DNA of 64,000 nt from a virus (lineage: Duplodnaviria; Heunggongvirae; Uroviricota; Caudoviricetes): IMG/VR virus record IMGVR_UViG_3300007735_000926, positions 133,683 to 197,682 of that record, one strand, 5' to 3'. The position numbers were made by a program, and so were the translations under genes. Position 1 is the stretch's first letter. Each line of letters starts with the position of its first letter. The notes beneath the pieces were generated by a model, which worked only from the letters and a program-made list of their open reading frames with translations, ran no database searches and was not told the DNA's origin. Positions 2,509 to 52,750 of the stretch are shown piece after piece.

Positions 2509-2594
2509 AAGTTTTTCAGTTGAAGATTGTATTGATAAAGGTGCCGTTGCTGTCACGAACGAAAGTTACAATGGTGTCGTCCTGAATAGTTAAA

Positions 2595-7705: not shown

Positions 7706-7715
7706 GTTTTGAGAG

Positions 7716-7789: not shown

Positions 7790-7856
7790 TTTGAATTTTA
7801 CTGTAGTTTTTATCCGATCTTTTCTTCCACCAGAGATTTACAATTAGGGGTAAGGG

Positions 7857-7945: not shown

Positions 7946-7960
7946 ATGAAAATTAAAGTG

Positions 7961-8045
7961 TGGCCACATCGGGACTCGAACCCGAACGCCCGAAGGGGCA
8001 GCAGATTTTAAATCTGCGGTGTCTACCAAGTTCCACCACATGGCC
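7961..8045 (-). tRNA. tRNA-Leu (anticodon UAA), type II
   Basis: Anticodon stem GCAGA/TCTGC with loop TTTAAAA, variable arm GCCC-CTTC-GGGC, T arm TCGGG-TTCGAGT-CCCGA. Confidence 0.65.
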
Positions 8046-17935: not shown

Positions 17936-19327
17936 TCAATTCTCCTCCTCCATGTTGGTTTCTCCTTTATCTCTATCGGCAGATTCCCCGATGAGAAACT
18001 TTGGGGATTTATATTTCAATGCAATTTTATTAATATCTGTCTCGTTACGAAGAACGACACCTTCATTGACAACACCAGTGGTGCAGAATTCACATGTCTT
18101 ATCCAGATACTTCGCCTTCAAAGATGTTAGGAATTCTTCTCTCCATACTGTTGGTTCAAGATCTGAAGTGTATGGAATATCAAACATATCTTTCGCCAGT
18201 CCCTTGTAATAGACTGGAACATGCTTCAGTCCTTTATCAAGACAGAATGTTTCAATTTCACTCCAAGAGCATTCACGAACACCATTGGGAGTGTTCTCAG
18301 TCATACGATAGACAAAGAAATCACATTCGCCTTGTTTGACACCATAATCGTAATTCTTTTGAACCATCTTGTTGGCAGAAGAATAACCGACAATCTCACC
18401 ATAAATAGTAAAATTCTTAGGGATCTTACCATCCAAACGAGATGCGACCACGCCCCAAACATCATCAGTGAATTTACCATCACGACGGTTCTTTAAGACC
18501 GACCGTGAAGAATACACCAACTTGTGTTCTGTTTCAACAATATTGAATCCAATTTTCTGTCCGATATATCGAAAGATATTGAATGGCTTTCTGCAAAGAA
18601 TATTGCCATACACAGCAGATGTTCCGTGCCACTTTGAAGATACCACGATAGAGTCATCAGGATTAATTTTAAAAATGTTTCTACCCAATTGCTCAGTAGA
18701 TCCGTGGAAATGCCAATGACCGTCTACGATCAAGCTACCAATACCCTTCTTGTTCTTATCGTAGAAATAATTGATGCCATTGTATAGAGGCTTGCGAATA
18801 GGAAGAGGGAACAGGCGAATAGTCTTTTCAACCCATTTAGGAATGCGCTTCTTGGATTCATTTTGAACACCAACCTTACCCGCTGTTGCCACATATTTCT
18901 TCACCAATAGATCATCCTTGACAGTATCAAAAGATTCTCCTGATTTGAAAAAGGATTCAGAAATATTATAATATTCAGAGAGCTTGGATACCTTGAATAG
19001 AAATCCTTGGCTCGGAATCTCACGTAGCTTCACAGCCTTAACTCTCCCATTTTTCGATGAGAAGAAACCCTTAGTCTTACCATCAGCATTCAATTCTGCT
19101 TTATCCAACAGATTTGCCCATGACAAGAACTTCTCCGAGATACAAGATTCCACTGGAAAGTATACCAATTTTTCACCTTTTTGATAACTGCCTTTGGCGA
19201 CGATTACATCACCACCAAAAACAGTAGCCAATTCAAGGCGATCAGCATTTGGATGTGGTTTCAATTCAGGACATTCGATTACCGTAGCTAGGTAATTCGG
19301 ATCACAATTTTTAGAAATACTAATCAT
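17936..19327 (-). CDS. RNA ligase, Rnl2 type, fused to N-terminal tRNA-binding OB-fold (Myf/Trbp111/CsaA-like) domain
   Basis: N-terminal KPHPNADRLELATVFGGDVIVAKG... (tRNA_bind-like); nucleotidyltransferase motif I SKWHGTS (T4 Rnl2 has KIHGTN), motif IV IYGEIVG, motif V EGVVLR, C-terminal KYKSPKF. Confidence 0.55.
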   Translation of the reverse strand: MISISKNCDPNYLATVIECPELKPHPNADRLELATVFGGDVIVAKGSYQKGEKLVYFPVESCISEKFLSWANLLDKAELNADGKTKGFFSSKNGRVKAVKLREIPSQGFLFKVSKLSEYYNISESFFKSGESFDTVKDDLLVKKYVATAGKVGVQNESKKRIPKWVEKTIRLFPLPIRKPLYNGINYFYDKNKKGIGSLIVDGHWHFHGSTEQLGRNIFKINPDDSIVVSSKWHGTSAVYGNILCRKPFNIFRYIGQKIGFNIVETEHKLVYSSRSVLKNRRDGKFTDDVWGVVASRLDGKIPKNFTIYGEIVGYSSANKMVQKNYDYGVKQGECDFFVYRMTENTPNGVRECSWSEIETFCLDKGLKHVPVYYKGLAKDMFDIPYTSDLEPTVWREEFLTSLKAKYLDKTCEFCTTGVVNEGVVLRNETDINKIALKYKSPKFLIGESADRDKGETNMEEEN

Positions 19328-27392: not shown

Positions 27393-28280
27393 TTAATGTT
27401 TTTTCGGTCTTTTTGAAAACTTAACATATACTCCAGCATCTTTCAAGGTTCTTCTTATCAAATAATGGGATACGTCATATCCATCTTCTAATAAAGCTTC
27501 TCGAACTCTATTTGTGCCGAAATTGTCATAATGTTTTATTATCAACTCTATTACATTCTGATCCAGATTTTTAAATTTTTTATTTTTATTAGCTTTTGAT
27601 ATTTTTTCTCTAGCTTCTTCAGAAAGTGTATATCCTTCCTGTTTTCTCCTCAACCAATCTCTTTTATTACCTTCCGAAATTTTATCTTTCCATGTTATAT
27701 CCCTACCAGTCATTTTTTCCCGCATTTTATTTCTTGTCTCTAATGAGATTTCTCTTTCGGAATTTATTTTTTTAAGCAACTCTTTGTGGTCTTCTGTCAT
27801 TTTTTTACCAAAATTAGGGTGGTTCTCGCCTCGCTGTTTCAGACCCTGCTGTTTTCTTATATCATTCATTTTTGTTTTGAATTCATTATCGGCCCATCGA
27901 TTTTTGGAAATTCTGCTCATATTTTCAATGTAATTATTATATGTATCAGTTCCTTTTGGCGGGGTATTCACTGAACCAAATGGTGAAATATTACAAAGAT
28001 TATCTATGCCTATTTCTTTAATTTTTATCGCTTCTAATTCCAGAGCTTCTTCCTCTAATAAATTTTCTTCTATTTTCTCACCAAAAATTTCACCACCTTC
28101 TCTTATAGTTTTTTGGCATTTATTCAATAAATATGTGTTGACTTTATTAGGATGACTACCTCTTATCAAATAACTTAAATGAGCTTGTAATCTTTTTTTC
28201 TTGCCTTTGCCAACATAAATAATTTCTTTCGGTTCATTTTCAAATTGTTGATATATAAAATATACATAATAATCGTTCAT
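27393..28280 (-). CDS. GIY-YIG homing endonuclease
   Basis: N-terminal YVYFIYQQFENEPKEIIYVGKGKKKR (GIY...YIG-like spacing); very AT-rich codon usage; lacks standard motif; track start at 28295 is a TTG. Confidence 0.5.
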   Translation of the reverse strand: MNDYYVYFIYQQFENEPKEIIYVGKGKKKRLQAHLSYLIRGSHPNKVNTYLLNKCQKTIREGGEIFGEKIEENLLEEEALELEAIKIKEIGIDNLCNISPFGSVNTPPKGTDTYNNYIENMSRISKNRWADNEFKTKMNDIRKQQGLKQRGENHPNFGKKMTEDHKELLKKINSEREISLETRNKMREKMTGRDITWKDKISEGNKRDWLRRKQEGYTLSEEAREKISKANKNKKFKNLDQNVIELIIKHYDNFGTNRVREALLEDGYDVSHYLIRRTLKDAGVYVKFSKRPKKH

Positions 28281-28310
28281 GTATATATTTAACAAATACT
28301 ATACCAAAAT

Positions 28311-29330
28311 CTATTTACTTTTCATTATTTTTTTAATGTTTTCGACTTCAGCCATTTCATTTTTAGCAAAAAGAAAAGCCGAATAATTTTTATAATTGTC
28401 TATAACATGAATTGCGTAATCTTTTCGAGTTGTAAAAATACTCGAAAGATTATTTTTTATTTTATACAATTTTTCTCTAAGAACTTTGTATTCAGAATCT
28501 ATTATCATCATATCTTTCGAAATAATCGATAAAATTTCAAAATCAATATTTTCCAAATTACATTTATTATCGAAATAGAAATCAATTTTTTTATTATATG
28601 TTGATATCTGAGTCAGAAAATAATGAGCGGAACAATACCAACTGCCCTTGATTTTACGCATTTTGTTGGTTTCTGAATAAAGGACAACGCCTTCTTTTCC
28701 AACCCACATTTCAACATCATCGATACATTCCTGAATGGAATTATAATGATATTTTTGTGGGCGAGAAATATCCAGATCCTGCGCCAAATCATCCAAATGA
28801 TATTGAGAGAACATTTCTCCTGTAATCTTATGGATACCACCGATCAACGATAGCTTTGGTTCAGGGAAACCACCAATAACAATAACATTGTTGTTGGTCT
28901 GCCACTCGCAAAGATACGTGATCTCGGGGTCTGCTATCACATAATCAAAGAATTTTTTATATTTCTCCAACAAGAAATCCAATTCGTAACCATTTTGAAG
29001 CTGGCGTAGATCTGTGGTTCCACGAGTTCTAGCTACAAGCTGCCCTTTATACGAATCAAAAATACCCAGAGAACCATCAAGCTTTTCATAAGCATAGAAA
29101 GACTCCTGCATGGGAAATTTATCCAAATCTGGTTGTTCCGACCAATTAAAGAATTTAGGAAATGAACGTGAAACAATGAAATGATCCGACTTGCGGATTA
29201 CCATTGAACGAAACTTCAGAGTTTCTTCCGTCCACTTGACGCCAATTTCTTTGGGAGTGATCAGCCAACAATCGTCGCCAAACACCACACAATCTTTGAA
29301 ATTAAATTCTTCTGAATTTGGAAGTCTCAT
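28311..29330 (-). CDS. rnlA: RNA ligase, T4 RnlA (Rnl1)-like
   Basis: Motif I YEKLDGSLG (T4 Rnl1 KEDGSL), motif IV TYLCEW; size 339 aa. Confidence 0.55.
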   Translation of the reverse strand: MRLPNSEEFNFKDCVVFGDDCWLITPKEIGVKWTEETLKFRSMVIRKSDHFIVSRSFPKFFNWSEQPDLDKFPMQESFYAYEKLDGSLGIFDSYKGQLVARTRGTTDLRQLQNGYELDFLLEKYKKFFDYVIADPEITYLCEWQTNNNVIVIGGFPEPKLSLIGGIHKITGEMFSQYHLDDLAQDLDISRPQKYHYNSIQECIDDVEMWVGKEGVVLYSETNKMRKIKGSWYCSAHYFLTQISTYNKKIDFYFDNKCNLENIDFEILSIISKDMMIIDSEYKVLREKLYKIKNNLSSIFTTRKDYAIHVIDNYKNYSAFLFAKNEMAEVENIKKIMKSK

Positions 29331-29820: not shown

Positions 29821-30039
29821 TTATTTTTCTTCGATCAGACGATATTCAAAATACCATTCGTATTCAAATACGACACTTCGATGACCTTTTCGTTCAACAT
29901 ATTCAAGCCACACCCAAACATTTTTACCTTCGTGATTGTCCAAGATTTTACGAGGAATCAGACAGAAGAACTTGTGCCATTCTCTCAGGGCGCGATGTTT
30001 TGCTTCAATGTTTGTTGTTGTCCATTTCATCGTTTTGAA
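29821..30039 (-). CDS. hypothetical protein (start likely internal Met MKWTTTNIEAKH)
   Basis: Track ORF 29821-30087 would overlap next gene by 60 nt. Confidence 0.3.
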   Translation of the reverse strand, partial: FKTMKWTTTNIEAKHRALREWHKFFCLIPRKILDNHEGKNVWVWLEYVERKGHRSVVFEYEWYFEYRLIEEK

Positions 30040-30209
30040 AGTTTGAAAACGGTAGCAATAATGGCAGCAATACAAAGCAGCATACACATTCCGCTAAAGG
30101 TTGCATGCATGCCCCAGCGAGCAGTTCTAACTGCAACGTGTGCAAGTTCAAGAAAGCCATAGATGCCAAGGTATCCAAGACCGAGGATAAGAATTAAATT
30201 GGTTCTCAT
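30027..30209 (-). CDS. small membrane protein
   Basis: 60 aa with two hydrophobic segments. Confidence 0.35.
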   Translation of the reverse strand: MRTNLILILGLGYLGIYGFLELAHVAVRTARWGMHATFSGMCMLLCIAAIIATVFKLSKR

Positions 30210-30377
30210 TGAGAAATGATTTTGAGTAGAAAATAAATGATGCTGGCGGTGACTACTAGAAAGCTGAACACCAACGCAAGCAAAAATGCTTGACAGTTAC
30301 GGACAAATCGTTGTTCTTGAGGAGAGAGATTTTCAAAAGGAATCTCTACATCATCTTTAAGAATTTTTAGTTTCATT
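30206..30377 (-). CDS. small membrane protein (56 aa)
   Basis: Hand-translated MKLKILKDDVEIPFENLSPQEQRFVRNCQAFLLALVFSFLVVTASIIYFLL...; ATGA overlap with downstream gene. Confidence 0.3.
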
Positions 30378-30395
30378 GTGGTTTATTTGTAAAGA

Positions 30396-30881
30396 TCAAT
30401 CTTCCCATTCGATCATCGGGCAATGCTTGTTCTTTTTGGCCTTGACAAATTCAACAAGAACGTTTGGCTGCTTTACTTTAGGAGCTTTGACTTTGGCCAT
30501 ACGGCGGTCATGATATTCCGCAACTTTGCACCAAGTAAACATAATGAGTGCAATACCAGCAACGCCGACAATGCCCATACCATTAGCGATAAGAAAATCT
30601 TGGAAAGTAAGCGGTCCTTTACTTGGAACCAATCCAAACATGAGCGACAAGATCATACCAATGGCAAAAACAACAGTTTCGATGAAAATGGTAATAAAAA
30701 ACCAACTGAACCGATCAGAAAATCTGTAACATTTACCAAAGAAAGAAACGCTAGTGATAGGCAGAGTAATCACAGCCAATACCAGTTTCCAGAAGTAAGG
30801 ACAAAGATTGGTTGGCAAAGTATCTGTAACATAGATAGCTTTGTAAAACTTAGCGTGCCAAGAAGTGCGTTTGATTTTCAT
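30396..30881 (-). CDS. integral membrane protein (4 TM)
   Basis: 161 aa, multiple hydrophobic helices; motif at 30893-30912. Confidence 0.45.
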   Translation of the reverse strand: MKIKRTSWHAKFYKAIYVTDTLPTNLCPYFWKLVLAVITLPITSVSFFGKCYRFSDRFSWFFITIFIETVVFAIGMILSLMFGLVPSKGPLTFQDFLIANGMGIVGVAGIALIMFTWCKVAEYHDRRMAKVKAPKVKQPNVLVEFVKAKKNKHCPMIEWED

Positions 30882-30910
30882 ATTGTTGTGCAGCGATTGT
30901 ATCGTAGTTT

Positions 30911-31369
30911 TTAAAAGTATCGGTTGACAGTGTTCTTAAAGATGCTTGTCAGTTGAGGCGACATATTGAATCGTCCTTGATTGTGCTCAATGGATTTGTG
31001 AACATTACCGTTTTTGTTTCGTTTGGTAGCCGCAATCCAATCAACTAACATTTCAACAAGATCAAGAAGATCCATATCATCAATGCCGTTTGGCCAATGT
31101 TCAGGATGATGAGTGTTCTTGCTGTAATGATGGTCAATAGCAGGTTTCACCTCTTCGAGAAGCTTTGTATATTCTTCCGAACCATATTCAGTATTGGCCA
31201 ACTTGGGAGTGTTTGTTGCAAACACACTACGTTCAGGTTCTTCGAATTTAGAAGCATCGTGAACTTGCGCTCGACGGTCAAGTTCTTTGATCATTGTCCA
31301 AATATTAGCTCTGACTTCATTGACATGCTTCAACGTTTCAGAATCATGTGTAAGTAGTTCTTGATTCAT
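30911..31369 (-). CDS. hypothetical protein
   Basis: 152 aa His-rich segment HHYSKNTHHPEHW. Confidence 0.4.
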   Translation of the reverse strand: MNQELLTHDSETLKHVNEVRANIWTMIKELDRRAQVHDASKFEEPERSVFATNTPKLANTEYGSEEYTKLLEEVKPAIDHHYSKNTHHPEHWPNGIDDMDLLDLVEMLVDWIAATKRNKNGNVHKSIEHNQGRFNMSPQLTSIFKNTVNRYF

Positions 31370-31659
31370 TCCATTATTTTTTCTAGGAAGTTTTCTGTTT
31401 TCTTACGAAGTTTGTTTATCACTTGGTTTTGTCCATTGTCTATTCCAGCAACATAACCAGCGTAATAAATAGCTCCATAAAATTCCTTGTCATTTCGGAT
31501 AATCTTGGTGAACGGAAGTTTCAATGTGATGATAGGAAATCCCGATGATCGCCATGTGCTATCATAGCAATTGTCTTCGCCTTGAATATTCTCGAAACCT
31601 TTCTTCTTCATGAATTCATGAGAAGCATCATCACGCAGCGGTATTTTTTCCATGTGCAT
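31366..31659 (-). CDS. hypothetical protein
   Basis: Track ORF to 31722 overlaps upstream gene; ATG at MHMEKIPL abuts upstream stop. Confidence 0.35.
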   Translation of the reverse strand: MHMEKIPLRDDASHEFMKKKGFENIQGEDNCYDSTWRSSGFPIITLKLPFTKIIRNDKEFYGAIYYAGYVAGIDNGQNQVINKLRKKTENFLEKIME

Positions 31660-31660
31660 C

Positions 31661-32206
31661 TTAGAAAACAACCTCCTCGTTTTTGATTTGACGACCTTGA
31701 TAAAATTCAACCCATCCGCCATATTGATTGGTTGATCCTGTCTCGATTACAAGTAGTTGATAGTCAACAATCTTTGAGGGAGTTTCCCATTCAACGATGC
31801 AGGTATCAGCAAACATTTCATTTTGAAACTTCTTGGTATAAACAATATCCTCATTGTAGATTTCTTGAGGATAACTATCAAAGTCAAACAGCCAGCCTGT
31901 ATCACTTTCCATCAAAACGTTACGACGATCAGGAACAAAGAAGTCAGGACGATTGTAGAGCTTAACATCACAAGCATCCATGTAAACGCTACAAACAAGC
32001 AGACGTTCAATATCGCTTCCAACATGATCAAGTGTGATGATGATGTATTCTGATAGATTCGCTTTGAAAGATCGCTTTTCTTTGACGGTAAAATCAGGCA
32101 GTTTACTCTTGGCAACATCGTCAAGTTCAATCAGAAGATCAACATCGTTGACACGAATTAGATCACCTTGCTTTGCATTACGAAATGAATTGATAAGTTG
32201 GATCAT
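31661..32206 (-). CDS. hypothetical protein
   Basis: ~180 aa. Confidence 0.4.
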   Translation of the reverse strand: MIQLINSFRNAKQGDLIRVNDVDLLIELDDVAKSKLPDFTVKEKRSFKANLSEYIIITLDHVGSDIERLLVCSVYMDACDVKLYNRPDFFVPDRRNVLMESDTGWLFDFDSYPQEIYNEDIVYTKKFQNEMFADTCIVEWETPSKIVDYQLLVIETGSTNQYGGWVEFYQGRQIKNEEVVF

Positions 32207-32210
32207 ATTT

Positions 32211-32960
32211 TTATCGGTTGACGAAATAAACAATCACACCACCAATAATGATGACGATGACAGGAAATGCAATACACCAAAAAAGAATATCACCATCGTC
32301 CCATTCATCATCGTAGTCATTATCAACGCTAGGAGCATTGCCAACATAGTAATTGTCACGATCCATAAGCGTATTCAGCATGACTGCATCGGAAAGTGCA
32401 TCATAAAGTAAAAAGGTGCCAATTCCCGGCCCGCCACCGCTCCAATAACCATAACCACCCACACTTTGATTGTAGGTAATGTTATAGCTGGTGCCATTGC
32501 TCTTGTAAGTTTGAGGAATATACGACGGGCGAGTGGTTGGTTCAGAAGCGAACTTGCTTGTGTAAGTATCGGCCTTCTTGGTCTTGAAATCAGCAATAGC
32601 GGATTCACGGGTCTTGAACACAGTGCCGCTCTTGGACGCTGCCTCATACTTGGAACGCTCAACATTGGATTGAACTCGGGTAGAAGTTTGAGGCTTAGAG
32701 AACCAACTGCTTCCAGAACTCTTACTGGTCGAACTTCCCGAATACTTGGCGCTGTTATTGCTACTAGACCCAAGACTATTGTAGCTTTTTGAACTGCTAC
32801 CAAAACCACTTCCAGAACTCTTAAAGCTGCTTCCAGAACTCTTAAAGCTGCTACTGGAACTCTTGAAGCCACTAGAACTACTTGGTTTGGCATCAATAAC
32901 TCCGATGCCCATGATTAGTGCTACAACAGCAACTCCGATTTGTTTAATGAGTGTTTTCAT
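32211..32960 (-). CDS. secreted/membrane-anchored Ser-rich low-complexity protein
   Basis: Signal peptide, long SSGFKSSSSSFKSSGSSFKSSGSGFGSSS tract, Gly/Tyr-rich segment, C-terminal TM helix. Confidence 0.5.
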   Translation of the reverse strand: MKTLIKQIGVAVVALIMGIGVIDAKPSSSSGFKSSSSSFKSSGSSFKSSGSGFGSSSKSYNSLGSSSNNSAKYSGSSTSKSSGSSWFSKPQTSTRVQSNVERSKYEAASKSGTVFKTRESAIADFKTKKADTYTSKFASEPTTRPSYIPQTYKSNGTSYNITYNQSVGGYGYWSGGGPGIGTFLLYDALSDAVMLNTLMDRDNYYVGNAPSVDNDYDDEWDDGDILFWCIAFPVIVIIIGGVIVYFVNR

Positions 32961-32985
32961 TTCGATATTAGATTATGTCAGTGTT

Positions 32986-33498
32986 TTATTCTTCGGTTAC
33001 GTTGGTGATTTCAAAAGTATGCTTGTAACCACTTGGATATGTAATGGAAATCAGATTGTTTCGTTCATCATATTCATAGGTAAACTTGTCACCATCTGGA
33101 TATGTCTCAGAAATACGATTGTTCCGTTCATCGTATTCAAAAGTATACTTTTCACCACTTGGAAATGTCTTGGAAATAAGATTGTTCCGTTCATCATATT
33201 CCAACTTGGGAAATTGTGATTTCATTTCATCAGTATATTCCTCAAAGGGAACAACACGGAGAACCTTGATCTTGTCGGTGACACTCTTATCATTTTCATC
33301 AATAACAGTTCCGAGAATCTCAATTTCAAGAAGAATGAAATTTTCAGTTGCATCGTAGTAATTCAGAGTGTTTTCCATCTTCTTACAAAAATGGAATCCG
33401 TGTTGACACATTTTTAGCTTATCAGAAGTATATGTCTTACCGACACGGTAAACTTGATCCCGGCACTTGAAATTGTGAGTTGCTTTGTAAGCGATCAT
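32986..33498 (-). CDS. YD-repeat protein paralog (Cys/His N-domain + 4 YD repeats)
   Basis: MIAYKATHNFKCRDQVYRVGKTYTSDKLKMCQHGFHFC... then YDERNNLIS repeats. Confidence 0.6.
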   Translation of the reverse strand: MIAYKATHNFKCRDQVYRVGKTYTSDKLKMCQHGFHFCKKMENTLNYYDATENFILLEIEILGTVIDENDKSVTDKIKVLRVVPFEEYTDEMKSQFPKLEYDERNNLISKTFPSGEKYTFEYDERNNRISETYPDGDKFTYEYDERNNLISITYPSGYKHTFEITNVTEE

Positions 33499-33519
33499 GT
33501 TTGTAGTTTAGATCAGTGT

Positions 33520-34260
33520 TTAACGAACGACGGTGACGGTAGTATCAATCACAGAACCGACAGCATTGATCGGATTGAATGGAAGATTACCACCATTGCT
33601 CTTGCTTTCAAATTGAGCAAGAGCAAGTTCAGCCATGCTCTGATTGACAGCATCCAGTTCATCAATCTCTGACAAAGACACGCTATCTTTTGCCACACGA
33701 AGACGACCAGCAGCCTTGTTACGTTCATCCTCAACAAGAGTGGTGATTCGATCAAGACTATCACCGCTGGAACCAAGAGAGGTAATCATACCATTGGCCA
33801 TTTCAGTAAGTTCAGCGGTAGCTTTACGAACCTTCAAATCATTGATACCACGTCCAAGAGCTTCCATCTTATCTTTAGCTGCCTTGACAGAAACATCACG
33901 GGCACGGGTCAAATCTTTGTAAGACTTTTCTGCTTCTTCCAATTGAGCAACAACATCATCATGTTCCTTGTCAACAGTTTGAAGACGAAGAGCAAGTTGT
34001 GCAGCAAGATCACGCTTGCCAGCTTGGAGCAGCACAGGAATCTTGGCATTCAGATCATTTTCATCGACGCTGAGTTTCTTGGCTTGAGCAGCGAGCTTTT
34101 CAACAAGGGCAGCTTGAATAGCAAGACCAGCATTGAAGTTGGCGATTTGCTTACGAAGGTTTTCCTTCTCGTTTTCAAGAAGAGCTTCAGGGTTGTTCTT
34201 TTCAATGCCTCCGATAAAGAGAGCGAAAAATCCACGAATAAGGTTGAGTAGGCGTTTCAT
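33520..34260 (-). CDS. pspA: PspA/IM30/Vipp1-family protein (phage shock protein A-like)
   Basis: N-terminal MKRLLNLIRGFFALFIGGIEKNNPEALLENEKENLRKQI and extended coiled-coil pattern matching PspA family. Confidence 0.6.
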   Translation of the reverse strand: MKRLLNLIRGFFALFIGGIEKNNPEALLENEKENLRKQIANFNAGLAIQAALVEKLAAQAKKLSVDENDLNAKIPVLLQAGKRDLAAQLALRLQTVDKEHDDVVAQLEEAEKSYKDLTRARDVSVKAAKDKMEALGRGINDLKVRKATAELTEMANGMITSLGSSGDSLDRITTLVEDERNKAAGRLRVAKDSVSLSEIDELDAVNQSMAELALAQFESKSNGGNLPFNPINAVGSVIDTTVTVVR

Positions 34261-34283
34261 ATGTCAGTATTGTATGTTAGTTT

Positions 34284-34859
34284 TTATTCTTCGGTTACGA
34301 TGGTGCGTTCAAAACTGGTCACAGCGCCAGTTGAATTAGTTTCCGAAATACGATTGTTATTTGAATCGTATTGATAGGTATACTTGCTACCATCTGGATA
34401 TGTCGCAGAAATCAGATTATTCCTTTCATCGTATTCATAGATAATCTTGTAACCACTTGAATCTCTCTTGGAAATAAGATTGTTACGTTCATCGTATTCA
34501 TAAGTATACTTGTTATCATCTGGAAATGTCTTGGAAATCAGATTATTCCTTTCATCATATTCCAACTTAGGAAATTGTGATTTCATTTCATCAGTATATT
34601 CCTCAAAGGGAACAACACGAAGCACCTTGATCTTGTCGGTAACACTTTTATTATCTTTATCAATAACAGTTCCGAGAATCTCAATTTCCAGAAGAATGAA
34701 ATTTTCAGTTGCACCGTAGTAATTCAGAGTGTCTTCCATCTTTTTACAGAAGTGGAATCCGTGGTTACACATTTCCAATTTGTTAGAGGTATAAGTTTTA
34801 CCAACACGATAAATTTGATTCCGACACTTGAAATTGTAGGTGGCTTTGTAAGCGATCAT
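34284..34859 (-). CDS. YD-repeat protein paralog
   Basis: MIAYKATYNFKCRNQIYRVGKTYTSNKLEMCNHGFHFC... then 5 YD repeats. Confidence 0.6.
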   Translation of the reverse strand: MIAYKATYNFKCRNQIYRVGKTYTSNKLEMCNHGFHFCKKMEDTLNYYGATENFILLEIEILGTVIDKDNKSVTDKIKVLRVVPFEEYTDEMKSQFPKLEYDERNNLISKTFPDDNKYTYEYDERNNLISKRDSSGYKIIYEYDERNNLISATYPDGSKYTYQYDSNNNRISETNSTGAVTSFERTIVTEE

Positions 34860-34868
34860 GTTTGTAGT

Positions 34869-35069
34869 TTAGAGCAGTGTTTTATTCTTCAAAAATTCCA
34901 TGCGTTCAATGTATGATTCAATACCATCGTTATGATCCTCAAGGCACACCAACGCATTGTTGAGCATAGCTTTGATTTCATTTATTGTCAAATTGGTGGT
35001 ATCAGTAGATGATGAAAGCCATCCTTCTACATAATCTCTAACTTGAGTAATGTTGAATCGAGTTTCCAT
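34869..35069 (-). CDS. hypothetical protein
   Basis: Track ORF 34869-35102 trimmed to internal Met to avoid overlap. Confidence 0.3.
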   Translation of the reverse strand: METRFNITQVRDYVEGWLSSSTDTTNLTINEIKAMLNNALVCLEDHNDGIESYIERMEFLKNKTLL

Positions 35070-35070
35070 A

Positions 35071-35550
35071 TTAGTGTATAAATGAGCGTAGTCGAAAATC
35101 AATATCTTTCAACCATTCTTCTTTGGTATAAAAGAGAGGGATATTATAACGCTCACACACAATACGAACATTACCCTGTCGCCAAAATCCATCAGGACAG
35201 CAAACAATTAACCTACCCGAATTAGCATACAATCCAAGTTCAAGAAGGCTAATAGGACTCTTTGTATTAGGGTCGAAATACATAACAATGTAGTCCGACT
35301 GATCCAACATATCAAGCTCCCAATTGACCTGTTCATCAAACTGCGGGCTATTATGGTCCCATGAACTATCCCAATCATATCGACGAGGATTGAAAAACAT
35401 CATATTGTTAGGATACCTTGCCATGAATTCATCTTGCCAATTTTCAGCCGCACCCATCTCAATACTTCCAGCAAGGAAAATAGAGGCATCTGGAAGTCGT
35501 TCATCATCAATTGTAAGCCTAATGGGAGGTTGAATTTGGAATGATTTCAT
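35071..35550 (-). CDS. nucleoside 2-deoxyribosyltransferase-like fold protein (tentative)
   Basis: SIFLAGSIEMG... flavodoxin-like start similar to NDT/Rcl family. Confidence 0.3.
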   Translation of the reverse strand: MKSFQIQPPIRLTIDDERLPDASIFLAGSIEMGAAENWQDEFMARYPNNMMFFNPRRYDWDSSWDHNSPQFDEQVNWELDMLDQSDYIVMYFDPNTKSPISLLELGLYANSGRLIVCCPDGFWRQGNVRIVCERYNIPLFYTKEEWLKDIDFRLRSFIH

Positions 35551-35562
35551 ACAATTATCAAT

Positions 35563-35916
35563 TTAGATTGGGAAATGTCCAAATCCAGAGCAAGACGTTT
35601 CAGGGAAAAGTGAATCAATCACGTTTGCTTGTTCCTTTGAAAGTTCAATCACTTCAAACAAGCTAAGAAACTCAGACATGGATCGATATTCATTTTGCTC
35701 GTTTGAGCCAAAGTAAACAGAAAAACAACAATCTTCATCATCTTCGATTTCTCTTTCTTCTTTGAATTCTTTGATAGCATTTTCCCACTCTTCAATATCT
35801 TCGAAAATCTTAAACCCGCTGACATCCATTTCATCAGCCCAATTTTCGTCAAATTTTACCAGTAGCATATTTTTTATTTTATTTTTTGTTGTAAAGGGAA
35901 AAGACCCGGATTTCAC
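35563..35916 (-). CDS. acidic hypothetical protein
   Basis: 117 aa. Confidence 0.4.
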   Translation of the reverse strand: MKSGSFPFTTKNKIKNMLLVKFDENWADEMDVSGFKIFEDIEEWENAIKEFKEEREIEDDEDCCFSVYFGSNEQNEYRSMSEFLSLFEVIELSKEQANVIDSLFPETSCSGFGHFPI

Positions 35917-36042: not shown

Positions 36043-36903
36043 TTAGAAGTTCTGAGCGACCTTAGCACGAATGCCAGCGAGCGTCTGTTCCTTGGTAATC
36101 ACACCATCCTTGAACACCTGCTCAAAGGCACAATTCTTAACGTCGTCCCAAGTGGCTTGATCCTTCATAACAAAGTTACCATCCTTTTCATAGACAGCAA
36201 TCAGTCCCTTGGCACTCTTCTTGAGTCCGTCATCAGTCTTCGGGTCTTTGAAGATTTCAACACCCTGAGTCTTACCATCAACCGTCACTTCGCCATAAGT
36301 GGACTTGACAGCGAATCCGTGAGTGTCACGGGTAACGATGGCGTCCATCGTGATAGCACCCTGATAAGTGAAGCTTCCGATACCATACACAAGGTTGGTC
36401 GAAGCAAACCCCTTGGCAGCGAGACGTTCACAGATAGCGGTAGCACGATCAATGGTGATACTGTCTCCATAGATGGCTCCAATATGACTATCAAGCTGAT
36501 GGTAGCCTGTGCTAGTAGCGGTGCCGCCAAAGATTTCCCAGAGACACTGAATCATGCCCTTAACTTCAAGCTCGGTAAGTTCTTTGCCCTTCAGTTCGCC
36601 AGTTTTTTCATTGGGATCAAGTTCGTAAATTTTACCTTGATGGACGATAATTTCATCATTGGTATAACCAGTCACAATCTTAACTGGATCACCCGAGTCA
36701 GGACGAATGACAACCTTACCATCACGGGCCATGATCTTGTCCTTGAGAATAGCAGCGATACCACCATCAGGATTCACAACGTTCCAGAAGTCCCACGTAT
36801 CCGAAACGATACTCGCGATACCATCAGGGTAGGTTTCAGTAATGAGGCGTTCGAAAAGAAGGAGTTCGCCAAGGCTTTGCTTTTGAGTTGCGTTTAGTTT
36901 CAT
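36043..36903 (-). CDS. nadV: nicotinamide phosphoribosyltransferase NadV/NAMPT, C-terminal half of split gene
   Basis: VSDTWDFW, VIRPDSGDP, IYGDSI, YGIGSF, IFKDPKTDDGLKKSAKG align with NAMPT residues ~300-490; has own ATG and motif copy at 36940-36960. Confidence 0.65.
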   Translation of the reverse strand: MKLNATQKQSLGELLLFERLITETYPDGIASIVSDTWDFWNVVNPDGGIAAILKDKIMARDGKVVIRPDSGDPVKIVTGYTNDEIIVHQGKIYELDPNEKTGELKGKELTELEVKGMIQCLWEIFGGTATSTGYHQLDSHIGAIYGDSITIDRATAICERLAAKGFASTNLVYGIGSFTYQGAITMDAIVTRDTHGFAVKSTYGEVTVDGKTQGVEIFKDPKTDDGLKKSAKGLIAVYEKDGNFVMKDQATWDDVKNCAFEQVFKDGVITKEQTLAGIRAKVAQNF

Positions 36904-36989
36904 AGTGTTTGTAGTATGGGGCAGTGTTTTATATTTGAATTTATTATAACGTAGTTTTTATTGATTAAATTACAGCTTTAAGTGTAAAT

Positions 36990-37700
36990 ATGTATATGAC
37001 TGAATGTTCAGAACGACCACAAGATACCAAATCATGCACCAAATGTCAAGAAGAAAAACCATTGAACGAGTTTCCTAAGAGTTCTCGATTTAAATCTGGT
37101 TTTAATTCCCAATGCAAATATTGTTTAAATACCGCATCTAAAAAATGGAGGGATGAGAATTCCGAAGACTTCAAAAACCGACGCAAGGAGCATTATTGGA
37201 AAAATGTTGATAAAATGCGAGAAGAAAAACGTCAATATGTTGAAAGATCAAAGCCTCAAAAAATTGCTTATGATGCTGAGTATCGAAAGGCCAACAAAGA
37301 TAAGATAGCAGCTTACAAAAAGAATTGGGAATCTAAAAAGAAAGACGATCCAATTTTTAAAATCAAAAGAAATTTAAGAAGACGAGTTCACCATGCTTTG
37401 ATGGGAAGAACCAAATCGGATAATACGTTTAATCTTATTGGCTGTTCAGCAGAAGAATTTAAAGCTCACATTGAAAGTCTTTGGTTGGAAGGTATGTCTT
37501 GGGATAACTATGGACCCTCTGGATGGCACGTTGACCATATCAAAGAATGCCATACGTTTGATTTATCTGATCCAAAACAACAGAAAGAATGTTTCCATTA
37601 TTCCAACCAAAGACCTCTGTGGGCTAAAGATAATCTTAGCCGTTCACGGCCATCACATAATCGTAATATTCGTAAGACTCATCAATCTCGTCAGGGATAG
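36990..37700 (+). CDS. HNH homing endonuclease inserted between the two nadV halves
   Basis: Plus-strand ORF with N-terminal zinc-finger Cys cluster and GWHVDHIKECH HNH motif; Lys-rich. Confidence 0.6.
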   Translation: MYMTECSERPQDTKSCTKCQEEKPLNEFPKSSRFKSGFNSQCKYCLNTASKKWRDENSEDFKNRRKEHYWKNVDKMREEKRQYVERSKPQKIAYDAEYRKANKDKIAAYKKNWESKKKDDPIFKIKRNLRRRVHHALMGRTKSDNTFNLIGCSAEEFKAHIESLWLEGMSWDNYGPSGWHVDHIKECHTFDLSDPKQQKECFHYSNQRPLWAKDNLSRSRPSHNRNIRKTHQSRQG

Positions 37701-38466
37701 ATTCAATCATAACGGCAGTTCCAAGGCACATGCAACTGTGTTCGGACGCTGCAACAGACACACCAACCATTTCCTTGTCACTATCAGCATTGTAATACTC
37801 CTCAAGGAAGTCGATGGCAGGAAGCGTATCAGTTCCGACAAAGCTAAGAAGGTGAGCAGCACCACTCATGGTAGCAGCTTCAAGACCCATCATACCACGG
37901 AAAGAGAAATCGTGTCCTTGGAATTGGACGAAATCAATCATTTCAGGATTGGTCTTCTTAGCCCACTCATTAAGAATCCTACGATAAATAAGAGCGGTCG
38001 TTGCACTGGTGCTACAAGCCCAAGTCGAGCAAGACAGAATGGTTTCAATGGCATTGGTAAGCCAGAAGAAACGAGCATCAGTGTTGAACACGACGAACAT
38101 TGGGACACGAAGATCAACGTTAGAACCTTCAGGCAGCGCCCAAATTTCAAGCGGAAGATAACCAAGAGCGTGAAGATCACGAATATGCTGGTCGCCAATG
38201 TTGTTGACGCCAAGGTAATTCAGAAGACGACGACCATACTTCTTGGTAACTTCATCCAAAGGACGAGAGAAGAAAGTGCGTTCCCATTCATCAAGCAGAT
38301 ACTTCTTCATGAAGTATTGCAGACCAAAACTGATCACCTTATTGATTCCCTTGACGCGAGTGCCGCGTGCAGTGAGATTCGAAAAGACCAGTTCGCTATT
38401 GCTAGGATACTGGCGGCGATGGTCAACTTTGTAACCGTCTACTAAGAGTGGAGCGAGTGTATTCAT
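37636..38466 (-). CDS. nadV: nicotinamide phosphoribosyltransferase NadV/NAMPT, N-terminal half of split gene
   Basis: VDGYKVDHRRQY, FQGHDFSFRGMMGLEAA, SFVGTDT, AASEHS align with NAMPT residues ~1-285. Confidence 0.65.
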   Translation of the reverse strand: MNTLAPLLVDGYKVDHRRQYPSNSELVFSNLTARGTRVKGINKVISFGLQYFMKKYLLDEWERTFFSRPLDEVTKKYGRRLLNYLGVNNIGDQHIRDLHALGYLPLEIWALPEGSNVDLRVPMFVVFNTDARFFWLTNAIETILSCSTWACSTSATTALIYRRILNEWAKKTNPEMIDFVQFQGHDFSFRGMMGLEAATMSGAAHLLSFVGTDTLPAIDFLEEYYNADSDKEMVGVSVAASEHSCMCLGTAVMIESIPDEIDESYEYYDYVMAVNG

Positions 38467-38549: not shown

Positions 38550-39458
38550 ATGACCAAGCATATCAAAAAAGAGTATTCCGATGTATTGAATGAGCTTTAT
38601 CCAACTTCAATCTCAATCGATGAGATAGCCGAGAGAATGAAACTGAGTAAACATACGGTTGAAGTATATGCTAGGAAGTTGGGTTTGTCAAGACCAAAAC
38701 CTGAGCCATGGAATTCATTATCAGAAAAAGATGAGAGATTGATATTGGATATGTATGAGTATGGTGATTTTGATGAATTGTCTCAGTTGGTTGGAAGAAG
38801 TAAACACGCTATTTCAGAATGGGCTAGGAAGAGAGGTATTAAACGTCAAATCAATATCAATCGAAATGGTGATATATCTATACTTCTTAATGGTTCTTTG
38901 CAATCGTTCTATTGGTTAGGTTTATTGGCATCTGATGGATATGTCAGCAAAGATGGGCATCTCATGTTCTCACAAGGGGAAAAAGATAAAGATATCGTAG
39001 AATCATTTGCATTGTATGTCAATTCTGCTGTTTATCAATTTGAAGTTGAATCTGGTTACAATACTCAACCTAGAACACTTTATAGAGTCAATGTAAAAGA
39101 TATTAACGCTGGAAAGGAAATTAGGAATTTATGGGGGTTGGATGATGAAGATCAAAAAACATACTCAAGTATATCGTCGGAATTTTTAAAAACAAAAGAA
39201 CAAGCAATGGCATTCTTGATTGGATTCTTTGATGGGGATGGATATCTCAGACCAAATTTTGCTGGTAAAATTGAAGTTCATTCTAATTGGTTGCAATTCC
39301 TAAATGAAATCTGTAAATTAGTCGGATTGGATTACGAAGGTAAAATCAATAATCGTGGATATGCCCGAATCACAATCAAAAAATCATTTATGCTTCAATT
39401 GAAAGCTTTTATCGAATCTAACAATTTGGTCCACAATCAAAGAAAATGGAACTTATGA
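38550..39458 (+). CDS. LAGLIDADG homing endonuclease with N-terminal HTH
   Basis: Two LAGLIDADG motifs: LLASDGYV and FFDGDGYL. Confidence 0.6.
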   Translation: MTKHIKKEYSDVLNELYPTSISIDEIAERMKLSKHTVEVYARKLGLSRPKPEPWNSLSEKDERLILDMYEYGDFDELSQLVGRSKHAISEWARKRGIKRQININRNGDISILLNGSLQSFYWLGLLASDGYVSKDGHLMFSQGEKDKDIVESFALYVNSAVYQFEVESGYNTQPRTLYRVNVKDINAGKEIRNLWGLDDEDQKTYSSISSEFLKTKEQAMAFLIGFFDGDGYLRPNFAGKIEVHSNWLQFLNEICKLVGLDYEGKINNRGYARITIKKSFMLQLKAFIESNNLVHNQRKWNL

Positions 39459-39530: not shown

Positions 39531-39565
39531 GATTATATCGTAGTTTTTATTGAAAAAATATCAGT
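39531..39565. repeat. 35-bp direct repeat copy B (orphan motif copy)
   Basis: GATTATATCGTAGTTTTTATTGAAAAAATATCAGT. Confidence 0.6.
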
Positions 39566-39567
39566 GT

Positions 39568-40485
39568 TTAATTGGTTGCGTAGTCGTTGTTAAGAACTTT
39601 GACGATAGCTTTGTCTTTACCTTTGAGTTCGAATTCCCACACACAATCACTATTCAGTTTAACAACGTCGGGCATGTGAGTGGCGTATTCAGCATGACTG
39701 CGGGGACTTGCTACAACGCCTTCACTCCAATGCATAACAGGTGTATAAGAACGCCATGTGCTTTTGAAAAGATCAAAGTGACAAACTGGAGAAGGATTAA
39801 CAGCATCGTGTAGATTGTCAAACACCAAAGGAAGATAACTACCAAAGTTGTTGTAAAGATTTTCAGCATTCCAAAAACCTTTGTCTTCGTTCTCAAGAAC
39901 CAAACGATTGCGAACACCAATATCGCAACGATTGAAAGCATTTCGGAAACGAATCAAATAATCCATCATGCTATCTTTAGCGGGATCAATCGAAAGATTA
40001 AGATGCAAACACATTGGTGATGAATAATTTCGAGCGCAGCCAAACATATCAAGAACATACGATTGATGATTCAGTTCTTTGATAGTCTTGGTGACAGTAT
40101 CAGGATTGAGTGATGGAAGAACATTGAATTGATCAGGATGTGACGAAATACTAACACCCAGCTTAACAGCAAGATCACCTGCATATTGCAAACGTGATTT
40201 GATTTCCTCAAAATCTGGCAGATCAAAATAAGAAAGATTGAGAGTGCTGTCAGTAATAAGGGGAAACAGATTGCTACTGATGCGATAATGCTTGATACCC
40301 ACAACAGCACAATGATGAATGATCACACCACACAAACGACTGTTGTGTAGAATCTTCTTAGAAAGATCAGCGATGGCAATATCGCGCTTCAACGAATTGA
40401 AACGAGAACGAGTCATCGTTTGAAACGCATTTGTTTTATTTTTTTCCTTGAGGATTTCGCTGATACAGACTAGGCCGATATTCAT
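39568..40485 (-). CDS. uvdE: UV DNA damage endonuclease UvdE
   Basis: RISSNLFPL, SSHPDQFNVL, RLVLENEDK, FDNLHD, HWSEGVVASPRSHAEYA align with Bacillus UvdE. Confidence 0.6.
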   Translation of the reverse strand: MNIGLVCISEILKEKNKTNAFQTMTRSRFNSLKRDIAIADLSKKILHNSRLCGVIIHHCAVVGIKHYRISSNLFPLITDSTLNLSYFDLPDFEEIKSRLQYAGDLAVKLGVSISSHPDQFNVLPSLNPDTVTKTIKELNHQSYVLDMFGCARNYSSPMCLHLNLSIDPAKDSMMDYLIRFRNAFNRCDIGVRNRLVLENEDKGFWNAENLYNNFGSYLPLVFDNLHDAVNPSPVCHFDLFKSTWRSYTPVMHWSEGVVASPRSHAEYATHMPDVVKLNSDCVWEFELKGKDKAIVKVLNNDYATN

Positions 40486-40788: not shown

Positions 40789-41043
40789 TTAATACCATGA
40801 AATAATCCAAACATTAAATATATTATGCTTTAAGCAGAAGCCATTTTGTTTCAGTTTATCGATAACAAAAGTGGTGAAAACTGTGTCACATTCAACAGAA
40901 TACCGTCCACTCATTGCAGCATTCTTGATAGCAACCTCAAGAGCTAAAAGCATATTTTCATCAGCTTGTCCTTTTAGTTGTTGTGCAACTGGATTGGTTA
41001 TCTCATTAGCTTCTTTTGCAGAAATCATATTAGTTTGTTCCAT
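40789..41043 (-). CDS. hypothetical protein
   Basis: 84 aa. Confidence 0.35.
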   Translation of the reverse strand: MEQTNMISAKEANEITNPVAQQLKGQADENMLLALEVAIKNAAMSGRYSVECDTVFTTFVIDKLKQNGFCLKHNIFNVWIISWY

Positions 41044-41825
41044 TTTCTTTCCATTACTGGAATATTCATATCTAGTGTTAGATTTTTAAACTTTCGAAAA
41101 TTTTCATTTTTGTAAATCATAAGCTTAGAATACCCTCTTGATGTCATTGAAATTATCGATTCTATCTTGAAGTGTTTCTCTAAAGCTATTTTTATAGATT
41201 CTAACACTTCCATCCAAGATGAATGTAATTCAAATTTCATGGCCACTACTTTAGATTTTTGCATACAAAAACAACCATCACCATCAAACAGTCCAAAGAA
41301 AAATGATACAAACTTATCCGAATCATTTAATATTTTTAATAGGTTTGGAGGATTTATGGTTTTTGTATGACCGACTTTATACAAATTTCTCAACTGTTCA
41401 CATGTATTAACATCTGATATGGAAATCGTGACCGATTCAGTATTGTTTGCGTAAGTGGTATTCTGAATGTTGTGTTTTATTGGCTGCTCGACTTCTAAAA
41501 AGTTTCTAAATTTTATTAAGTGTCCTTCGTCTTTGGGAGAAACTGTAATTTTTATGTTATTGCGTTTCCCTATATGACCATCGGCTATTATGAAACCATG
41601 CCAATAATAGGATTCAAGACTGTCATTTAATAATTTAGATGCTTTATATTTTCGTTTGTCTATCAAACTTTTGATTTTGAATCGTCTAGCAGCCTCTTTT
41701 AGTGTAGATCGTTTAATTCCTAGTTTTTTCGCTAATTGATTTTTATCACCTAACGGATATTCATCTTTTAAAAGTTGGATTTTTTCTGGTGTCCATTGGA
41801 TTTGAGGTTTTATAAGTTGGCTCAT
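41025..41825 (-). CDS. LAGLIDADG homing endonuclease with N-terminal HTH
   Basis: FIIADGHIG and LFDGDGCF motifs; similar architecture to 38550-39458 product; AT-rich, no standard motif. Confidence 0.55.
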   Translation of the reverse strand: MSQLIKPQIQWTPEKIQLLKDEYPLGDKNQLAKKLGIKRSTLKEAARRFKIKSLIDKRKYKASKLLNDSLESYYWHGFIIADGHIGKRNNIKITVSPKDEGHLIKFRNFLEVEQPIKHNIQNTTYANNTESVTISISDVNTCEQLRNLYKVGHTKTINPPNLLKILNDSDKFVSFFFGLFDGDGCFCMQKSKVVAMKFELHSSWMEVLESIKIALEKHFKIESIISMTSRGYSKLMIYKNENFRKFKNLTLDMNIPVMERKWNKLI

Positions 41826-50495: not shown

Positions 50496-50521
50496 GTTGG
50501 TATTCTAGTGCAGTGTTTAAT

Positions 50522-52717: not shown

Positions 52718-52750
52718 AGTGTTTGAGATGTTTGCAGTTTAGGTCAGTGT

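Follow-up and report, generated by a model that had tools for sequence, protein, structure and literature searches.

A Conserved Phage Unit of a Predicted PspA/IM30 Protein and Two Uncharacterized Partner Proteins in a Large Uncultured Tailed Phage

Gene Content of the PspA Region

We analyzed a stretch of 64,000 nucleotides (nt) of the IMG/VR virus record IMGVR_UViG_3300007735_000926 (hereafter the window), focusing on the block at positions 32211–34859, which includes a gene for a predicted protein of the PspA/IM30 family. The first-pass annotation of this DNA, which was made from the sequence alone, had placed four open reading frames (ORFs) in the block and all four were found, each of them on the minus strand. 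The PspA gene belongs to a conserved unit which, read on the coding strand, runs from PspA to a gene for a serine-rich (Ser-rich) anchored protein (32211–32960) and then to a gene for a protein of 181 amino acids (aa; 31661–32206). The last of these genes lies just beyond the range of the original block, yet is part of the unit. The PspA gene had been described as following the Ser-rich gene, and while the Ser-rich protein is indeed a signal-like, C-terminally anchored protein, it is PspA that comes first on the coding strand. The features of this region, in their order on the coding strand, are as follows.

34875–34884, minus strand: TAAAACACTG, a copy of the junction motif, located where the gene preceding YD-A ends
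34284–34859, minus strand: YD-A, 191 aa, an N-terminal DUF7666 domain with conserved Cys/His followed by about four YD units; a lineage-specific insertion upstream of PspA
33520–34260, minus strand: predicted PspA/IM30 protein (ESCRT-III superfamily), 246 aa, identified by PF04012, AlphaFold2 (AF2) and Foldseek; proposed effector of the module
32986–33498, minus strand: YD-B, 170 aa, a paralog of YD-A with about three YD units, inserted between PspA and the Ser-rich gene
32211–32960, minus strand: Ser-rich secreted protein with a C-terminal transmembrane (TM) anchor, 249 aa; proposed membrane anchor or sensor
31661–32206, minus strand: beta-rich cytoplasmic protein, 181 aa, with its ATG start at 32206 (the listed ORF begins with TTG at 32233); proposed adaptor

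Identification of a Divergent PspA/IM30 Protein

The product of 33520–34260 matched the Pfam family PF04012 (PspA_IM30) with an E-value of 5.4e-8 and a score of 33.1 bits, the curated gathering cut-off being 33.9 bits, in an alignment that covered profile positions 4–213 of 220. Eighteen of 20 members of its clade matched PF04012 at E ≤ 1e-3 (best E 1.8e-11), and its bacterial relatives carry the name PspA/IM30 in their source annotation. It was the fold search that decided the identity of the protein, since profile searching by sequence and hhalign, the latter run against the single sequences of Escherichia coli PspA and of a bacterial PspA from locus L017 (see below), gave nothing informative. 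The AF2 model, which was built on an alignment of the protein's own clade, has helices at residues 2–22, 24–79, 83–162, 169–193, and 197–221, a layout that corresponds to alpha0, alpha1, alpha2/3, alpha4, and alpha5 as in PspA, Vipp1, and ESCRT-III. The per-residue confidence of the model (predicted local distance difference test, pLDDT) was 85–93 in the hairpin and 68.8 overall. The best 19 Foldseek matches in the PDB were all to Vipp1, PspA, Snf7, CHMP1B, or Asgard ESCRT-IIIB, with 204–224 aligned columns and a best E-value of 3e-4. The N-terminal helix (residues 2–22) is amphipathic, having a hydrophobic moment (muH) of ~0.5 vs. a mean of 0.27 for the other 18-mers, and residues R3, N6, G10, F11, F15, and G18 are invariant across the phage and bacterial members, as are residues of the hairpin between the phage and bacterial clades.

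Based on the Pfam match, the matches of the clade, the helix layout, and the Foldseek results, we accept 33520–34260 as a predicted, divergent member of the PspA/IM30 family, in agreement with the first-pass annotation of this gene as a PspA/Vipp1 homolog. Its setting does not correspond to the canonical proteobacterial Psp system (PspF-ABC), as a scan confined to the genes from 30396 to 35916 gave no match to PspB, PspC, or PspF.

A Triad of Genes Is Conserved Among Phages

We compared the window with seven other phage loci, which are located on IMG/VR contigs of 25–166 kb and, in the case of locus L035, on a 202-kb metagenome contig. On the IMG/VR contigs, genes for RNA ligase, homing endonuclease, NAMPT, and tRNAs surround the relatives of the window PspA. 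The same triad order was present at all seven loci, with the gene directly after PspA encoding a homolog of the Ser-rich protein at each, and the PspA proteins ranged from 51 to 95% identity to that of the window:

L035 (202-kb contig): PspA 95% identical to the window
L001: PspA 91% identical to the window
L002: PspA 70% identical to the window
L006: PspA 63% identical to the window
L005: PspA 61% identical to the window
L032: PspA 54% identical to the window
L033: PspA 51% identical to the window

The expectation that relatives would keep a block of genes around PspA was therefore correct as to the existence of a syntenic block, which is kept in seven relatives, but not as to its members, which are PspA, the Ser-rich protein, and the 181-aa protein, with no YD gene among them. 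The genes on either side of the triad vary among the phages: upstream there is an RNA ligase gene in L002, L005, and L006, and a small gene together with a deoxyribosyltransferase-like gene in L001, L035, and the window.

In comparisons with L035 and L001, the ratios of nonsynonymous to synonymous substitution rates (dN/dS) were 0.08–0.09 for PspA, 0.086 for the 181-aa gene, and 0.10–0.21 for the Ser-rich gene; all three genes of the triad are under purifying selection. The spacers within the block are 21–25 nt long, and a scan of the block for promoters and terminators produced nothing convincing, with terminator-like matches only inside coding sequence. The three triad genes are probably co-transcribed.

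Virus-borne PspA genes are rare, as had been claimed for this one, based on their near absence from several collections. Among 50,697 records of cultured phages there was no match to the DNA of the block or, by tblastn, to the PspA protein, and PHROGs contained no detectable relative of the window PspA, the only match being to phrog_14720 with an E-value of 0.033. When 2.9 million IMG/VR contigs were scanned with a pattern, five loci of the clade were recovered, and the only phage PspA that we found in the literature is a Kuttervirus gene identified by HHpred (PMC9409062).

The Partner Proteins and Their Bacterial Homologs

The Ser-rich protein has an N-terminal hydrophobic, signal-like segment (residues 1–27), a linker in which 34 of 65 residues are Ser, and a TM segment at residues 221–249. 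The core of its family is a periplasmic domain of ~110 aa with invariant GGYGY and EPxxRPxYIP motifs, for which there was no match in Pfam or NCBIfam. In a library of 1.84 billion proteins clustered at 50% identity, the family had 552 cluster representatives at E ≤ 1e-3, mostly of 210–320 aa with a few of 480–523 aa. A scan of bacterial genomes, made with an alignment of five sequences, placed members in metagenome-assembled genomes (MAGs) of Rectinemataceae, Pirellulaceae, Sumerlaeota, Planctomycetota, Verrucomicrobiae, and Chthoniobacteraceae. The 181-aa protein, which also had no Pfam match, was modeled as a mostly beta protein (pLDDT 84.6; predicted template modeling score, pTM, 0.84). None of the seven proteins tested matched a PADLOC defense model, apart from a chance coiled-coil match.

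We read seven bacterial loci that encode members of the partner families (L009, L013, L014, L015, L016, L017, and L018), in which ORFs were called with a crude in-house ORF finder. In L009 (a 269-kb bacterial contig), L013, L014, and L015, the Ser-rich gene is followed by a separate gene for a homolog of the 181-aa protein. The links of the bacterial proteins to the 181-aa family had E-values from 3.5e-12 to 1e-4 with a profile made of phage sequences only, and phmmer comparisons between the bacterial copies gave E-values as low as 1e-34. In the remaining loci the two families are fused around one TM helix, in the order signal peptide, Ser-rich linker, conserved domain, TM helix, and beta-rich domain. 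The fused single-pass membrane proteins, of 479–597 aa, are from MAGs of Planctomycetota, Verrucomicrobiae, and Chthoniobacteraceae and are encoded at:

L016, 6473–8266
L017, 6731–8251
L018, 6647–8086

Because this bacterial fusion fixes the topology, the domain of the Ser-rich family is expected to lie outside the membrane and the beta-rich domain inside, and the fusion also argues that the separate Ser-rich and 181-aa proteins of the phage act together. A DUF350 protein precedes the partner pair in L009, L013, L014, L016, and L017. In L014, L017, and L018 a protein of ~150 aa comes after the pair, and after it a PspA with a match to PF04012 (E 2e-13 to 6e-26), and the gene ahead of the pair in these three operons encodes DUF350 or a permease. 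Homologs of both phage partners are found, then, in bacterial operons with DUF350 and a PspA gene (L014, L017, and L018), and it is this operon context that ties both partners to PspA. The ~150-aa protein of L017 and L018 had no Pfam match and is possibly CesT/Tir-like.

Candidate identities for the partners were sought among the proteins of the E. coli yjf genes and were rejected: hhalign found nothing to equate the 181-aa protein with YjfK (DUF2491) or the Ser-rich protein with YjfM (DUF1190), and a supposed YjfM-like motif proved wrong. At permissive E-values (up to 1–5), the window partners and 11 bacterial homologs had no Pfam match to DUF4178, DUF4247, or others. A pair of genes of the two families was also observed in a 188-kb Tara Oceans contig (L007, 5001–6412), where a Ser-family gene is accompanied by a 228-aa relative of the 181-aa family; PspA is not adjacent to this pair, which has as its neighbors a glutamate-receptor-like ion channel gene and a NAMPT gene.

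Origin of the Phage PspA

The phage PspA is 55–62% identical, over ~88% of its length, to PspA proteins of Verrucomicrobiaceae (Rubritalea, Luteolibacter, and Oceaniferula). In a neighbor-joining tree, calculated with no bootstrap or other support values, the phage proteins form one clade that is sister to those of the Verrucomicrobiaceae. The neighborhoods of the cellular relatives were read in Rubritalea (L003/L004), L019, and L020. The Rubritalea PspA gene is directly followed by a gene for a 548-aa AAA+ ATPase, and in L019 a 561-aa AAA+ ATPase with 53% identity to that of Rubritalea is encoded one gene beyond PspA (the regions concerned are 6001–8486 in L003/L004 and 5001–8297 in L019), while the L020 PspA has neighbors other than AAA+. 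No homolog of the AAA+, DUF350, or ~150-aa proteins was found in the window by phmmer.

From the differing PspA clades of the phage and of the bacterial partner operons, we infer that the triad is a mosaic: it appears to join the PspA of one lineage to the anchor and adaptor genes of another, in a new order. We also observed a conserved TMGP at the C-terminus of the bacterial relatives and a VMG at that of many phage copies, though the window copy lacks the latter. This end may be an ATPase-interaction motif.

Proposed Function of the Triad

We propose that the phage PspA, the Ser-rich anchor, and the 181-aa adaptor make up a three-gene anchor–adaptor–effector system for protecting or remodeling the inner membrane of the host, a reading that we consider somewhat more likely than not. 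In this proposal the effector would be PspA, with its intact amphipathic N-terminal helix and its helical hairpin of the ESCRT-III type. The conserved domain of the Ser-rich protein would face the periplasm, where it possibly senses the envelope, and the C-terminal helix would hold the protein in the inner membrane, with the soluble, beta-rich 181-aa protein serving as a cytoplasmic adaptor. Based on the fact that the two partners are adjacent or fused in bacteria, and that they occur in PspA operons in three of the seven bacterial loci, we suggest that they form an anchor or sensor plus an adaptor that, by physical interaction, would bring PspA to the membrane, recruiting or nucleating its polymers on the side of the host inner membrane that faces the cytoplasm. 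The outcome would be that membrane integrity and the proton-motive force are kept through a long infection, and the phage could benefit by resisting depolarizing abortive-infection effectors, damage from superinfection, or premature holin action.

A bolder version of this proposal, which we put forward only tentatively, is that large phages of one clade have put together a self-contained, ESCRT-III-like membrane system of their own, by combining a PspA captured from one bacterial PspA lineage with a split anchor and adaptor from another type of PspA operon, as a counter-defense that may seal the host inner membrane against depolarizing abortive-infection effectors or premature lysis.

Several observations weigh against the proposed three-gene system. 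With regard to PspA itself, the window protein is 0.8 bits under the Pfam gathering cut-off, and a search of PDB sequences with a profile of its clade returned chance coiled-coil matches only and did not retrieve the solved PspA and Vipp1 proteins. With regard to the partners, the fold of the 181-aa protein had no informative relative among solved or viral structures, neither family had a sequence match to DUF4178, DUF2491, or DUF1190, and no PspA was detected within the flanks that were read in four of the seven bacterial loci (L009, L013, L015, and L016). Conversely, neither the Ser-rich nor the 181-aa partner is encoded beside the cellular PspA relatives in L003/L004, L019, or L020. The PspA of the bacterial partner operons is of another clade, which has no BLAST match to the phage PspA, and the L017 and Rubritalea PspA proteins are only 25% identical (E 0.003). 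The pairing in the triad is a new combination for which the compatibility of PspA with its partners is assumed, and the case for their acting together comes from synteny and the bacterial fusion. Lastly, a verrucomicrobial host is a reasonable guess made from the similarity of PspA alone.

The strongest alternative to the protective system is that the triad serves active membrane remodeling, either by shaping or scission of membrane for a phage compartment or vesicle, or in the timing of lysis against or with holins. The model of the phage PspA has a clear fold match to the Vipp1, PspA, and ESCRT-III polymers, and PspA and Vipp1 are known from the literature as relatives of ESCRT-III that tubulate, fuse, and repair membranes. 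In addition, the relative L035, with its 202-kb contig, is of jumbo size, and small TM proteins are encoded just downstream of the triad (30027–30881). However, no lysis genes were identified beside the block, the neighbors being accessory genes for nucleotide and NAD metabolism and RNA repair, no AAA+ ATPase for disassembly was found in the window, and nothing points to internal membranes in this phage. We consider a role of this kind to be unlikely.

Slightly less probable again, in our estimation, is that the phage PspA targets a PspA–AAA+ system of the host, by co-polymerizing with the host PspA or titrating its AAA+ ATPase, with the partners merely localizing it. Such targeting would be consistent with the ~62% identity of the phage PspA to those Verrucomicrobiaceae PspAs that are encoded near a conserved 548–561-aa AAA+ ATPase, with the N-terminal and hairpin residues that do not vary between the phage and bacterial clades, and with the VMG terminus of many phage copies (though not that of the window), which is akin to the bacterial TMGP. 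Yet a role for the C-terminal motif is speculation, and the strict conservation of the partners favors a self-contained unit.

The Flanking YD-Repeat Genes Are Recent Insertions

The PspA gene of the window is sandwiched between YD-A and YD-B, and the first-pass annotation had drawn attention to these as paired paralogs of ~170–190 aa that share a Cys/His-containing N-terminal domain. Both proteins have DUF7666 (PF24703; gathering cut-off 27 bits) at residues 1–89 (YD-A, E 4e-17, 62.8 bits; YD-B, E 4e-18, 66.3 bits) and RHS/YD repeats, as determined by matches to PF05593 (E 1.5e-27 and 1.2e-18, respectively) and TIGR01643 (E 1.6e-15 and 9e-12). They share 82% protein identity, and their DNA, with 23 nt of leader counted in, has 86.5% identity over 505 nt. 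The tandem YD unit is 63 nt (21 aa) long and is present in 3.0 and 3.1 copies, so that there are about three to four units per protein and not four to five as had been counted. The window has a third member of the family, 31 kb away, which has ~8 YD units and is 44% identical to the whole of YD-A (tblastn, E 2e-60):

1741–2556, minus strand: third DUF7666 and YD paralog, with homology from 1744 to 2490 and an uncertain start codon

The first-pass view that the YD proteins are too short to be classical Rhs toxins was upheld. YD-A and YD-B score 28 and 20 bits against RHS_core, for which the cut-off is 2000, and the proteins have no RHS core, toxin domain, or signal peptide, and end right after the repeats. 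The PHROGs related to DUF7666 (14105, 4433, and 9215) are all of unknown function, and the domain was found in nine records of cultured phages, where it is labeled hypothetical or left unannotated.

It had also been proposed that these short proteins bind carbohydrate or membrane and work with PspA, making YD–PspA–YD a functional block that relatives would be expected to keep. YD genes and PspA are adjacent in the window, and also on a 1.1-kb contig from this phage, and both YD genes are intact and under moderate constraint (dN/dS of 0.23 between YD-A and YD-B). Comparison with the related phages, however, has already largely refuted such a block. L035, whose PspA is 95% identical to that of the window, has a YD gene at neither junction and none within 7 kb. 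In L001 the junction between PspA and the Ser-rich gene is uninterrupted and the single YD gene is at a distance of three genes. No YD gene stands beside PspA in L002, L005, L006, L032, or L033. Genes of the YD family also occur as tandem pairs or triplets on the related contigs L023 and L025, and in L026 a YD copy occupies the corresponding position, behind the small upstream gene, with the triad absent; the third copy of the window is likewise far from PspA.

The junction sequences show that the YD genes entered a pre-existing PspA–Ser operon. In L035 the upstream gene leads into PspA via '...GAATAAAACACTGACCTAAACTACAAACACTATG' and PspA leads into the Ser-rich gene via '...CGTTAAACACTGCCCTAACCTAATATCGAAATG'. 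The leader 'TAAAACACTG..CTAAACTACAAAC' runs into PspA in both L035 and L001, which have no YD-A there, and in the window YD-A begins right after the leader 'CTAAACTACAAAC', just as this leader stands ahead of PspA in L035. YD-B is bracketed by TAAACACTG (33514–33522, at the PspA stop codon) and TAAAACACTG (32979–32988, at its own stop codon); it carries a copy of the leader, and the Ser-rich gene's original '...CTAATATCGAAATG' comes after it. We concluded from these sequences that the YD sandwich is no functional set but arose when a gene that is mobile or prone to duplication inserted twice in this lineage, at a short junction sequence that is repeated, and that a joint action of the YD proteins with PspA is highly improbable.

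The junction motif, TAA(A)ACACTG, has eight copies in the window where ~0.8 would be expected, all of them on the coding strand, each coinciding with a stop codon or following one closely:

TAA(A)ACACTG copies, all minus strand: 32979–32988, 33514–33522, 34875–34884, 36922–36931, 39562–39570, 50511–50519, 52745–52753, 53437–53445

The motif may act as a signal for regulation or processing, or as a hotspot at which gene cassettes recombine. We noted that it brackets the SPFH unit as well as the YD-B insertion.

Viral Setting and Other Genes of the Window

The window consists of small genes arrayed on one strand, which include two RNA ligases, a PRPP synthase, a nicotinamide phosphoribosyltransferase (NAMPT) split in two, and a nucleoside deoxyribosyltransferase-like protein, along with LAGLIDADG and GIY-YIG endonucleases and four tRNAs. 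Such a content of endonucleases and RNA ligases typifies the mosaic accessory regions of large phages, and the region belongs to the accessory genes of a large tailed phage that is uncultured. The features outside the triad region are:

7624–8045, minus strand: tRNA cluster (Leu-CAA, Ile-TAT, Met-CAT, Leu-TAA)
17936–19327 and 28311–29330: RNA ligase genes
27393–28295 (minus), 38550–39458 (plus), and 41025–41825 (minus): homing-endonuclease-type genes, one GIY-YIG/NUMOD3 and two LAGLIDADG
30027–30881, minus strand: three small predicted membrane proteins (60, 56, and 161 aa), just downstream of the DUF5662 gene that comes after the triad region
36043–36903 and 37636–38466, both minus strand: split NAMPT, consisting of a NAPRTase part (C-terminal) and a NAMPT_N part (N-terminal)
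36990–37700, plus strand: 236-aa ORF between and overlapping the NAMPT parts, with no Pfam match and an H-x-D-H-like motif
39568–40485: UvdE-like endonuclease
51144–52433, minus strand: SPFH/Band-7 protein, 429 aa, PF01145 E 1.9e-9 and 38.2 bits (cut-off 23.6); phrog_11908 E 1e-55 (function unknown)

That the PspA region is bacterial DNA, from a prophage flank, a chimeric assembly, or contamination, or that PspA is a neutral passenger gene with no role in the phage, is the least credible of the explanations that we considered, since although PspA is typically cellular and its nearest named relatives are bacterial, this is already contradicted by the phage genes on both sides of the triad in the window and at seven other loci from different samples, by the monophyly of the phage PspAs and the retention of gene order despite divergence to ~51% identity, by the dN/dS of ~0.09, and by a guanine-plus-cytosine content (0.37–0.41) that is in line with the rest of the window.

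The SPFH gene had been grouped with PspA as a membrane-remodeling or envelope-stress set of the phage. While the SPFH protein is real, the two genes are unlinked, being 17 kb apart, and in the one IMG/VR relative that was found (L021, 76% identical) the SPFH gene is in a different neighborhood, between homologs of the DUF5662 and NAMPT genes, with no match to PspA, the Ser-rich protein, or the 181-aa protein within 4 kb. Associations of PspA with Band-7 proteins are known in bacteria, and it is conceivable that the two act jointly in this genome. As to other genes of the window, the NAMPT gene is split similarly in the 202-kb relative L035 and is intact (501 aa) in L001, and the 161-aa small membrane protein is kept in L035, at another position.

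Relationship to Known PspA Systems

The central feature of the region is a conserved phage PspA triad with two uncharacterized partner families. The nearest known counterparts of the partner operons are the yjfJ-type operons described by Ravi et al. (2024, PMC11237479, groups 2 and 3), in which a CesT/Tir-like protein and PspA are accompanied by DUF350 (YjfL), by a protein that is secreted or a lipoprotein, and by a cytoplasmic protein rich in beta strands. The bacterial operons of L014, L017, and L018, with DUF350, the anchored and beta-rich proteins (split or fused), a ~150-aa protein, and PspA, resemble this type, and the phage unit shares with it the common logic of an envelope-facing protein, a cytoplasmic beta-rich protein, and PspA. 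However, the phage unit has no DUF350, ~150-aa protein, or polyamine genes, its PspA is first and not last and comes from another clade, and its partner families are not detectably DUF4178, DUF2491, or DUF1190. The closest relatives of the phage PspA are instead the Verrucomicrobiaceae PspAs linked to a two-domain AAA+ ATPase, with which it has in common the helix layout and the invariant N-terminal helix, but the bacterial genes are near AAA+ (L003/L004 and L019) or other genes (L020) while the phage window has no AAA+ homolog.

In the PspB/PspC–PspA system of E. coli and the LiaI–LiaH system of Bacillus subtilis, small integral membrane proteins serve to recruit polymers of the PspA family to membrane under stress (PMC7619361). 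The working principle that we propose for the phage unit is the same, although PspB, PspC, and LiaI have no sequence relationship to the phage anchor, which differs from them in its large periplasmic domain and its separate cytoplasmic adaptor, and there is no PspF match (genes 30396–35916). The other phage-encoded example, Gp_125 of Kuttervirus SeF3a (phrog_1203), was reported to be a PspA homolog on the basis of HHpred and proposed to be an anti-abortive-infection factor (PMC9409062). It is likewise a PspA-like gene of a phage with a proposed role in keeping the proton-motive force, but the window PspA has no match to phrog_1203, and no partner genes have been described for the Kuttervirus gene. 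The flanking YD genes, for their part, have bona fide YD/RHS repeats in common with the Rhs/YD polymorphic toxins and the YD shells of teneurins. They differ in being only 170–271 aa long, with three to four units (~8 in the third paralog), a DUF7666 N-terminus, and no shell of cocoon size.

Significance

The flanking genes of the window illustrate how adjacency in a single genome can mislead, as YD–PspA–YD proved to consist of mobile paralogs at a short junction motif. The triad, by contrast, is minimal and strongly conserved, and it nominates two uncharacterized families, fused in some bacteria, as an anchor and an adaptor for PspA. With three small proteins, the question of how PspA is recruited is directly testable. 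If our proposal is true, a function, PspA recruitment, would be assigned to two uncharacterized families of bacterial proteins, and the triad would be the first case of a virus that encodes a PspA machinery along with dedicated partners. For phage biology, the maintenance of membrane integrity would join the host functions that large phages bring with them, and the triad is a concrete candidate for resistance to membrane-targeting abortive-infection systems.

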